Positions 12,159 to 12,283 of a DNA stretch of 64,000 bases are shown here, in pieces. The notes under the pieces were generated by a model. That model was given only the letters and a program-made list of their open reading frames with translations, was not told the DNA's origin and ran no database searches. How positions within the stretch are numbered: position 1 is the stretch's first letter; each line of letters begins with the position of its first letter. The position numbers and the translations under genes were made by a program. This DNA comes from an uncultured virus (IMG/VR IMGVR_UViG_3300022925_000007) (lineage: Duplodnaviria; Heunggongvirae; Uroviricota; Caudoviricetes). The stretch lies in the IMG/VR virus record IMGVR_UViG_3300022925_000007; one strand, written 5' to 3'.

Positions 12159-12187
12159 TTTACTTCTGATTATAGATAGTATATAAT
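12159..12187 (+). promoter_or_regulatory. Early-type promoter TTTACT-N17-TATAAT driving pqqA/tmRNA
   Basis: gtgcTTTACT tctgattatagatagta TATAAT. Confidence 0.75.
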
Positions 12188-12211
12188 CAATTGGATCTGG
12201 AGGTAATTCTT

Positions 12212-12283
12212 ATGTGGACTAAACCAGAAGCAATAGACATGCGTGTCGGATTTGAAGTCACCATGTATTTTAGTATTCGATGA
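12212..12283 (+). CDS. pqqA: Pyrroloquinoline quinone precursor peptide PqqA (23 aa, not in ORF track)
   Basis: GGAGG RBS; [23 protein letters not shown] matches the PqqA pattern MWxKP...R.GFEVT.Y with ExxxY core. Confidence 0.92.
   Translation: [23 protein letters not shown]

Follow-up and report, generated by a model that had tools for sequence, protein, structure and literature searches.

A pqqA gene in a phage genome

The uncultured virus IMGVR_UViG_3300022925_000007 from the IMG/VR database (Caudoviricetes) was analyzed over a stretch of 64,000 nucleotides, hereafter the window. On the plus strand, the window contains a 23-codon open reading frame (ORF) with a GGAGG Shine-Dalgarno (SD) sequence, which an earlier annotation made from the nucleotide sequence alone (the original prediction) had taken for a phage-encoded gene for PqqA, the precursor peptide of the redox cofactor pyrroloquinoline quinone (PQQ). 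Re-reading of the sequence found each of these elements at its predicted position:

12199..12203, + strand: Shine-Dalgarno sequence GGAGG, 8 nt ahead of the pqqA ATG
12212..12283, + strand: pqqA, 23 codons plus stop (ATG at 12212, TGA at 12281-12283), with the cross-link pair E15-x3-Y19

In the ORF list, the pqqA frame is nested in a TTG-started ORF of 30 amino acids (12191-12283). Searches with two hidden Markov models (HMMs) of the family bore out the PqqA identity: the peptide scored 41.9 bits against Pfam PF08042 (cut-off 21.1, E 9e-11, profile positions 1-19 of 19) and 41.9 bits against the NCBIfam equivalog model TIGR02107 (cut-off 20, positions 1-20 of 21). Both scores are about twice the respective cut-off and on a par with the 36-43 bits that Methylophilaceae host copies reach with the same model. 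The peptide of 23 residues (relatives in bacteria and viruses have 23-25) starts with MWTKP, that is, with the W-x-K-P leader, and the predicted ExxxY motif is present as Glu15-Val-Thr-Met-Tyr19, with the usual spacing of the pair. Out of 1857 stop-to-stop frames in the window (minimum length 20 codons), this ORF alone was fitted by a loose PqqA regular expression. On the strength of these sequence features, the ORF is identified as a genuine pqqA gene on a phage genome.

Linkage to pqqBCDE is a typical PqqA trait but is not strictly required of the family, and it was not found in the 64-kb window, as had been predicted. Searches with Methylovorus PqqB, PqqC, PqqD, and PqqE by tblastn gave no match at E<=1e-3, and family scans of the window ORFs (PHROGs on 58 ORFs, Pfam on 30 of these) detected none of the PqqB-E families. 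The nearest related record, a 28.9-kb fragment estimated to be 16% complete, yielded no PqqA match.

pqqA in cultured methylophages and uncultured viruses

Comparison of the peptide with a set of 50,697 phage records (tblastn, E<=10) produced matches in 12 records and in no others. Nine of these are isolates on Methylophilales or Methylophilaceae (MEP401, MEP402, four Melnitz isolates, Venkman, MEP301, and P19250A), and a tenth is a circular virus of 41 kb that comes from a freshwater spring. The two remaining records, both named “Acinetobacter phage MD-2021a” (CAKLQF020000010.1 and CAKLQH020000055.1), were dropped as bacterial chromosome (fur, ppk, pqqBCDE, and dipeptidase genes). The query was able to detect gamma-type PqqA, the Acinetobacter contig being matched at E 1e-3. 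All nine records with a stated host, thus, infect Methylophilales or Methylophilaceae, and they span four unrelated lineages: Kyanoviridae, Zobellviridae, and two siphovirus-like types. When we refer below to every cultured methylophage, we mean all records found by tblastn and those known to us.

Like the window, Melnitz (Kyanoviridae), MEP401 and MEP402 (Zobellviridae), and Venkman, MEP301, and P19250A (siphovirus-like) carry a pqqA ORF of 23-24 codons with the W-T-x-P signature (PF08042 scores of 37 bits for Melnitz and 41.9 bits for MEP401), whereas the genes around it are unrelated to those of the window. With blastn of positions 11000-14000 against the phage records, the pqqA ORF alone was matched, in MEP401, MEP402, and the four Melnitz isolates. 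The copies closest to the window pqqA at the DNA level are those of MEP401 (7 of 54 nt different) and Melnitz (9 of 54). The gene is unannotated in all 10 genuine records, in agreement with the expectation that standard gene callers miss ORFs this short; in Melnitz and the spring virus, a “hypothetical protein” is annotated on the opposite strand instead. In P19250A (KX815270.1), a complete 23-residue pqqA ORF occupies an unannotated gap at about 4001-4072. The paper on Lake Baikal viruses describes this phage as lacking any methylotrophy-related auxiliary genes (PMC7678222), a statement that our tblastn result contradicts: by its sequence, P19250A does have a complete pqqA ORF.

A search of virome contigs, suggested as a check of the original prediction, recovered the same gene in more than 120 IMG/VR contigs. 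The full-motif pattern matched at least 120 stretches, with 34 different peptides of 23-25 residues among the matches listed. A degenerate pattern for the 21-nt core (GFEVTMY), which fixed neither the ORF, the ATG, the WxxP, the tail, nor the SD features and is, therefore, less circular than the full motif, likewise matched at least 120 stretches. All 120 core matches listed lie in a complete ORF of 23-25 codons with an ATG and W-x-x-P twelve residues upstream. Among the same 120, a four-residue tail follows the core in 119, a GGA-type motif stands 4-18 nt before the ATG in 119 (a lenient test), and (E/D)-M-R precedes the core in 107. No PqqB-E was found near the viral pqqA loci (flanks of 3 kb for 80 full-motif loci and about 300 nt for the others), so that these loci are not bacterial pqq operons mistaken for viruses. 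Single-linkage grouping by neighbor genes resulted in one group of 84 loci and was not used as a lineage count.

Within the 18-codon segment that begins with Trp and ends with Tyr, differences between the window and eight relatives fall mostly at third positions, the counts for codon positions 1/2/3 ranging from 2/0/5 (MEP401) to 1/2/10 (an OM43-type strain); the window and the bacterial copies differ at 11-20 of 54 nt. Judged by this substitution pattern, the viral pqqA ORFs are intact and under purifying selection.

Host PqqA and the likely host

In bacterial genomes, the motif W-T-K-P-x-A-x-x-M-R-x-G-F-E-V-T-M-Y matched at least 124 stretches. Among the matches listed, 63 of the 79 titled loci come from Methylophilus, Methylotenera, Methylovorus, Methylobacillus, Ca. 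Methylopumilus, Methylophilaceae, or Methylophilales, another 14 have a name at the level of phylum, class, or order only, and 2 are in a metagenome-assembled genome (MAG) named Acidovorax caeni. pqqB is adjacent to pqqA in 11 of the 79 long-flank Methylophilaceae loci among the matches listed. The commonest viral peptide (36 of 120 listed) is identical to the one seen most often in bacteria (65 of the roughly 130 copies listed).

Candidate hosts were examined for pqqBCDE, another of the checks suggested at the outset, in five Methylophilaceae genomes of 1.0-2.1 Mb. PqqE scored over the cut-off in all five, with one such pqqE against 2-12 pqqA matches (12, 3, 2, 4, and 5 in the five genomes). 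Methanol/ethanol-family PQQ dehydrogenases were matched in all five as well, over the cut-off in two, the matches in the others being clipped by contig ends. Methylophilaceae have been reported to carry 3-12 pqqA copies and a single pqqBCDEFG (Beck et al. 2014, PMC4109929), and in a methylotroph production strain, the pqqA transcript level is reported to track PQQ synthesis (PMC9851590).

Methylophilaceae PqqA resembles the window peptide in length, leader, core, and tail pattern, and orphan copies of the gene are the rule. The host peptides are nearly invariant (one variant has the tail VCNR), and the window peptide matches them at 14-16 of 22 residues from Trp2. We somewhat favor a Methylophilaceae host, and the likely host is a PQQ-producing methylotroph of this family (OM43-like). 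The assignment is weakened by the intermediate position of the window peptide between two PqqA types: Ala7 and Met10 are Methylophilaceae-like, whereas Asp9, the aliphatic residue 12, Phe20, and Arg23 resemble the DLR (gamma-proteobacterial) type of larger proteobacterial genomes. When 400 Pseudomonadota genomes were sampled evenly, 24 matched the peptide, and the best identities were 76% to a 2.8-Mb DLR-type genome and 75% to an OM43-type MAG. Local GC content did not discriminate between hosts.

A separate observation concerns the Methylophilales strain LSUCC0135 (MCAW01000015.1), the genome with 12 pqqA matches. Between two direct repeats that contain pqqA (834-1160 and 6414-6741; 267 + 61 nt, 86-89% identity, spaced by 5580 nt) lies a segment with genes for a tyrosine recombinase, a Fic protein, and a HigA antitoxin. 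In this strain, pqqA may have served as the integration site of a genomic island.

A permuted tmRNA gene abuts pqqA

At its 3' end, pqqA runs into a two-piece (circularly permuted) transfer-messenger RNA (tmRNA) gene, a feature absent from the original prediction:

12274..12535, + strand: two-piece tmRNA gene (RF04321, 90.6 bits, gathering score 47, model positions 1-213 matched)
about 12274-12336, + strand: tmRNA acceptor piece, ending in ACCA
12337-12396, + strand: spacer between the acceptor and coding pieces
from 12397, + strand: tmRNA coding piece, beginning with GGGGGCG
12491-12535, + strand: tag frame, encoding AANDDYYGDVRLAA*

ARAGORN also called a permuted tmRNA (tmRNA*) at 12244-12626, with the tag AANDDYYGDVRLAA, and the Rfam beta_tmRNA model matched 12233-12586 with 72.5 bits, under its gathering score of 84. 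The tmRNA gene overlaps the final 10 nt of pqqA, the pqqA stop codon lying within the modelled RNA, and the first RF04321 helix draws on 12274-12278, which comprises pqqA codon 22 plus the first base of the next codon, 23. An Rfam scan of 11000-14000 found no glutamine riboswitch at E<=1. Because none of the five Methylophilaceae genomes reached the RF04321 gathering score, the phage tmRNA does not appear to be of the likely host's type.

A pattern search of IMG/VR for the PqqA core with a T-loop 30-58 nt downstream retrieved two contigs, and an ATGTAY-to-T-arm pattern matched 22 stretches, with one pqqA junction. In each search, one contig with the junction matched the window at 100% identity across 5074 nt and, thus, represents the same phage, not an independent case. 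The only independent relative with the same junction is the contig IMGVR_UViG_3300040856_002803 (hereafter L529), whose permuted tmRNA is 71% identical to that of the window and has the tag ANDDNYYEDFALAA. L529 keeps pqqA from Asp9 to the stop, a 15-residue remnant joined to the tmRNA, whereas the leader MWTKPEAI with the ATG is replaced by a sequence 84% identical to the 75 nt that precede a tRNA-Pro gene in the window (20548-20622). Over the 16 codons from Asp9 to the stop, all seven changes between the window and L529 are at third positions, six of them synonymous and one replacing Met with Ile; with a possible GTG taken as the start codon, the remnant reaches 26.2 bits on PF08042, over the core only. 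Its presence in L529, whose tmRNA identity is as low as 71%, marks the junction as old by this comparison. The pqqA core was under selection at the peptide level. The 75-nt element itself is present in a single copy in the window and matches no Rfam family; it may act as a promoter or leader that small RNA genes have in common.

A general link of pqqA to tRNA-like genes was considered and rejected on the counts. No tRNA or tmRNA gene was found within 3 kb at 118 of the 120 viral pqqA loci listed (40 of these loci have about 300 nt per side), and a tmRNA was present within this distance at two. A T-arm with CCA within 160 nt downstream was found at none of 240 viral pqqA loci, and a PqqA-like ORF upstream at none of 119 sampled T-arm matches of phage tmRNAs. 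Two IMG/VR contigs of 96 kb and 42 kb (L174 and L191) have a permuted tmRNA 2.0-2.4 kb upstream of pqqA, unfused, and their pqqA shows 78% nucleotide identity to that of the window across the ORF. In Melnitz (MZ577097.1, 2995-3164), a tRNA-Leu begins 10 nt past the stop of the 24-residue pqqA, where the window has the tmRNA, whereas MEP401, MEP402, Venkman, MEP301, and P19250A have pqqA without an RNA gene nearby.

Two-piece tmRNA genes have been described in marine T4-like phages, namely, in Melnitz and in pelagimyophage-like contigs (Buchholz et al. 2022, PMC9004378). As in the window with its promoter candidate, the permuted ssrA of these phages stands just after a promoter, and the Melnitz tmRNA was reported not to be of the host type (PMC9004378), the window tmRNA likewise differing from that of its likely host. 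Unlike in those phages, the acceptor piece in the window begins inside the 3' end of pqqA. It is unusual for a protein-coding gene to extend into a structured RNA gene in this way. A doubtful but conceivable reading is that the pqqA message and the acceptor piece form one RNA, left uncut between the pqqA stop codon and the first tmRNA helix, that is, an mRNA ending in the alanine-accepting CCA arm of a rescue RNA. The helix between the two tmRNA pieces would then be opened or closed by ribosomes translating pqqA, and precursor synthesis would be coupled to ribosome rescue.

Promoter candidate and RNA data

Upstream of pqqA lie a promoter candidate and a gene for an alternative oxidase (AOX):

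11589..12152, + strand: AOX, 187 amino acids (PF01786, 211.6 bits), directly upstream of pqqA
12159..12187, + strand: sigma-70-like promoter candidate TTTACT-N17-TATAAT (10/12 matches; -35 at 12159-12164, -10 at 12182-12187)

The candidate lies in the 59-nt gap between the AOX stop codon and pqqA. Of the proposal that pqqA has its own early promoter, which is not supported in that form, the presence of TTTACT-N17-TATAAT held up, but the site is not separable from chance and is probably shared with the abutting tmRNA gene. Promoter-like sites are not enriched locally (8 in 10800-13400 vs 5.4 +/- 2.3 in shuffles), and neither are strict promoter sites on the plus strand of the window (6 vs 4.8 in shuffles). 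The site ahead of pqqA is the sole promoter-like site on the plus strand upstream of the tmRNA; because there is no other plus-strand candidate, pqqA and the tmRNA probably share it, and co-transcription of pqqA and the tmRNA precursor from one promoter is probably the simplest reading of the arrangement.

The extended -10 sequence GTATAAT is common to three intergenic promoter-like sites (5725-5752, 12159-12187, and 28345-28372), two of which have GCTTTACTT in common and two TCTGATT. These sites may constitute a class of phage promoters.

Among 24 sequencing runs, six RNA runs contain 16-25% of the window's words. RNA contigs from four runs cover parts of 11000-11323, AOX, and 12549-13348 at depths of 2-5. 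Near pqqA, they touch only 12272-12336, with loose ends unlike the window, and because of these ends, the pieces likely derive from tRNA-like domains of other organisms.

Proposed function and alternative explanations

In PQQ synthesis, PqqA is bound by PqqD, the radical S-adenosylmethionine enzyme PqqE links its Glu and Tyr, and proteases, PqqB, and PqqC complete the cofactor (PMC7678222, PMC9851590); the Glu-Tyr cross-linking by PqqE is established chemistry (Barr et al. 2016, as cited in PMC7678222). An infecting phage would transcribe pqqA, probably together with the abutting two-piece tmRNA as one primary transcript. Host PqqD and PqqE would accept the 23-residue peptide and form the Glu15-Tyr19 cross-link, and PqqB, PqqC, and proteases would finish the product into PQQ. 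Only PqqA would be consumed, at one peptide per PQQ, with the enzymes being re-used. When the phage shuts off host transcription, this short message would be the first to run out, and phage PqqA would then keep the PQQ-dependent methanol/alcohol dehydrogenases and the energy supply running once host transcription fails. The psbA gene of cyanophages is a comparable case, in which the phage supplies a rapidly used-up component of the host energy system and leaves the machinery to the host; psbA, however, encodes a full protein subunit, whereas the pqqA product is a substrate of 23 residues, destroyed when the cofactor is made.

We consider it probable that pqqA is an auxiliary gene that supplies a consumable precursor to the host PqqBCDE. 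This reading is favored because the gene is restricted to phages of obligate methylotrophs, its ORFs are intact, some viral peptides are identical to those of the hosts, and the hosts themselves multiply pqqA. A host-type gene is found in a T4-like phage genome, and the candidate hosts encode PqqE, PQQ dehydrogenases, and pqqA, as expected of an auxiliary metabolic gene. The suggestion that the phage would augment the host PQQ supply fits the recurrence of the gene, the intact ORFs under selection, and the host pathway with its many pqqA copies. We infer expression of pqqA, use of the promoter, uptake by the host enzymes, a benefit to the phage, and the identity of the host.

Several points speak against substrate supply. 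PQQ is a stable cofactor, and why more of it should be needed within one infection is unexplained. Some Lake Baikal viruses also encode a methanol dehydrogenase (PMC7678222), which by analogy suggests newly made apo-enzyme as one reason for PQQ demand; no methanol dehydrogenase gene was found in the 64-kb window. The window peptide differs from the host consensus at 6-8 of 22 residues from Trp2, and its acceptance by PqqD and PqqE is assumed. The RNA contigs from four runs leave pqqA uncovered and are uninformative about its expression either way. L529 has lost the leader and start codon, so that pqqA is dispensable in at least one lineage. Finally, the window represents 64 kb of phage DNA, and the remainder of the genome lies outside it.

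The junction with the tmRNA prompts the alternative that the ORF is mainly a 5' leader of the tmRNA precursor, controlling the folding, processing, or stability of the acceptor piece, with PQQ supply secondary or absent. Its last two codons (22-23) contribute to the first RF04321 helix, it is preceded by the sole plus-strand promoter-like site upstream of the tmRNA, L529 retains the 3' two-thirds of pqqA on its tmRNA despite the loss of the leader, and a run of 20 nt (ACCATGTATTTTAGTATTCG) is identical in the window and L529, with zero synonymous change. We judge this explanation quite unlikely given the near absence of RNA genes from viral pqqA loci (118/120, 0/240, and 0/119 in the counts above), the intact PqqA leader, start codon, and SD sequence in the window, and the exclusively third-position changes in L529, a pattern that fits a peptide and not an RNA. 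It is also unlikely, if a little less so, that pqqA is a passenger captured from a host by recombination, without a role in infection and decaying. The many scattered orphan copies in the hosts (pqqB adjacent in 11 of 79 loci listed; 2-12 pqqA per genome) would have offered many chances of capture, and the leader was indeed lost in L529, but every one of the 120 viral copies sampled is intact, the gene recurs in cultured methylophages of four unrelated lineages, the third-position bias recurs in every comparison, and the window copy, although diverged from the host copies, retains a full-strength HMM score.

Two further alternatives appear very improbable. The peptide could be a decoy that occupies PqqD and PqqE without yielding PQQ and so shuts the host pathway, and Ile8, Asp9, Val12, and the FSIR tail of the window peptide are indeed departures from the host consensus. 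However, the peptide retains both residues of the cross-link, Glu and Tyr, and the complete GFEVTMY core, many viral copies have exactly the sequence of a host peptide, and blocking the cofactor of an energy enzyme would bring no obvious gain to a lytic phage of an obligate methylotroph. Equally remote is a role of pqqA as an att-like target for recombination with, or attachment to, host pqqA loci, notwithstanding the repeats that flank the tyrosine recombinase segment in LSUCC0135 and the pqqA copy inside a genomic island mentioned in PMC4109929. No integrase was found among the 58 window ORFs (PHROGs) or beside pqqA in Venkman, MEP301, P19250A, MEP401, and Melnitz, and an att role leaves the intact start codon, SD sequence, and stop of the 120 listed viral copies unexplained. 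Moreover, T4-like phages are not known to integrate.

Relation to published viral PqqA

Supply of PqqA by a virus, with the same proposed role, was already published in 2020, in the account of Lake Baikal VP_266, a predicted Methylophilaceae virus that encodes PqqA (Coutinho et al. 2020, Microbiome, PMC7678222). Like the window, VP_266 is described as a methylotroph phage with pqqA and without pqqBCDE, and the gene was proposed to raise PQQ for methanol dehydrogenase (PMC7678222). The differences are that VP_266 is an uncultured freshwater virus that also carries a methanol dehydrogenase gene (PMC7678222), whereas the window belongs to a salt-marsh or marine T4-like myophage in which pqqA follows AOX and abuts the tmRNA gene. 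Virus-encoded PqqA has also been listed among phosphate-solubilizing genes in reservoir sediments (2026, PMC13188868). A full-text literature search returned no further reports of phage pqqA. No phage pqq gene is mentioned in the main text and three supplements of the Melnitz paper (PMC9004378), in the main text and two supplements of the MEP401/402 paper (PMC10580990), or in the main texts of the MEP301 (PMC8024684) and Venkman (PMC8163748) papers. Two points appear to be unreported in the literature searched: the presence of pqqA in every cultured methylophage record found and the tmRNA junction.

The phage and its gene neighborhood

PHROGs searches of the window identified both ribonucleotide reductase subunits, PhoH, MazG, a gp32-type single-stranded DNA-binding protein, and a DNA end protector, along with baseplate wedge and hub proteins, tail tube, and head closure proteins. 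By this gene content, the window is assigned to a lytic-type T4-like marine myophage. The gp6 baseplate wedge protein is nearest to those of Phage C48C1 (39.7%; host unknown) and the OM43 phage Melnitz (36.7%), with about 32-33.4% to the SAR11 phages HTVC008M and Mosig. Among the sequencing runs, salt-marsh metagenomes contain the whole stretch and may be where it originates, and marine metagenomes contain 56-60% of its words.

An AOX homologue was found in one other of the 50,697 phage records, Phage C48C1 (67% amino acid identity), and in none of the five Methylophilaceae genomes with the window AOX as the query. Together with a peroxiredoxin gene (20026-20541), AOX suggests a redox-related gene set.

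The window also contains many glycosyltransferase (GT) genes, at 8866-9486, 13318-27187, and 33635-34294 (GT2, GT4, GT8, GT25, and pyruvyl transferase). One protein of 1300 amino acids combines GT4, GT2, and methyltransferase-like domains, and the GT density is unusual for a T4-like phage.

Implications

PqqA would rank among the smallest auxiliary metabolic gene products known and would contribute a substrate, not an enzyme; routine gene callers miss pqqA or call the wrong strand. Cultured phage-host pairs with pqqA exist (Melnitz or Venkman on the OM43 strain H5P1, MEP401 on FZCC0133), making the function directly testable, although the published OM43 medium contains 1 nM PQQ (PMC9004378), which could hide a pqqA phenotype. 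The gene could also serve to mark uncultured viral contigs as methylotroph-infecting. It is present in every cultured OM43/LD28 phage record found, in four unrelated lineages, which suggests that phages of obligate methylotrophs generally need a supply of PQQ precursor. Their hosts link algal methanol to CO2 in coastal seas.

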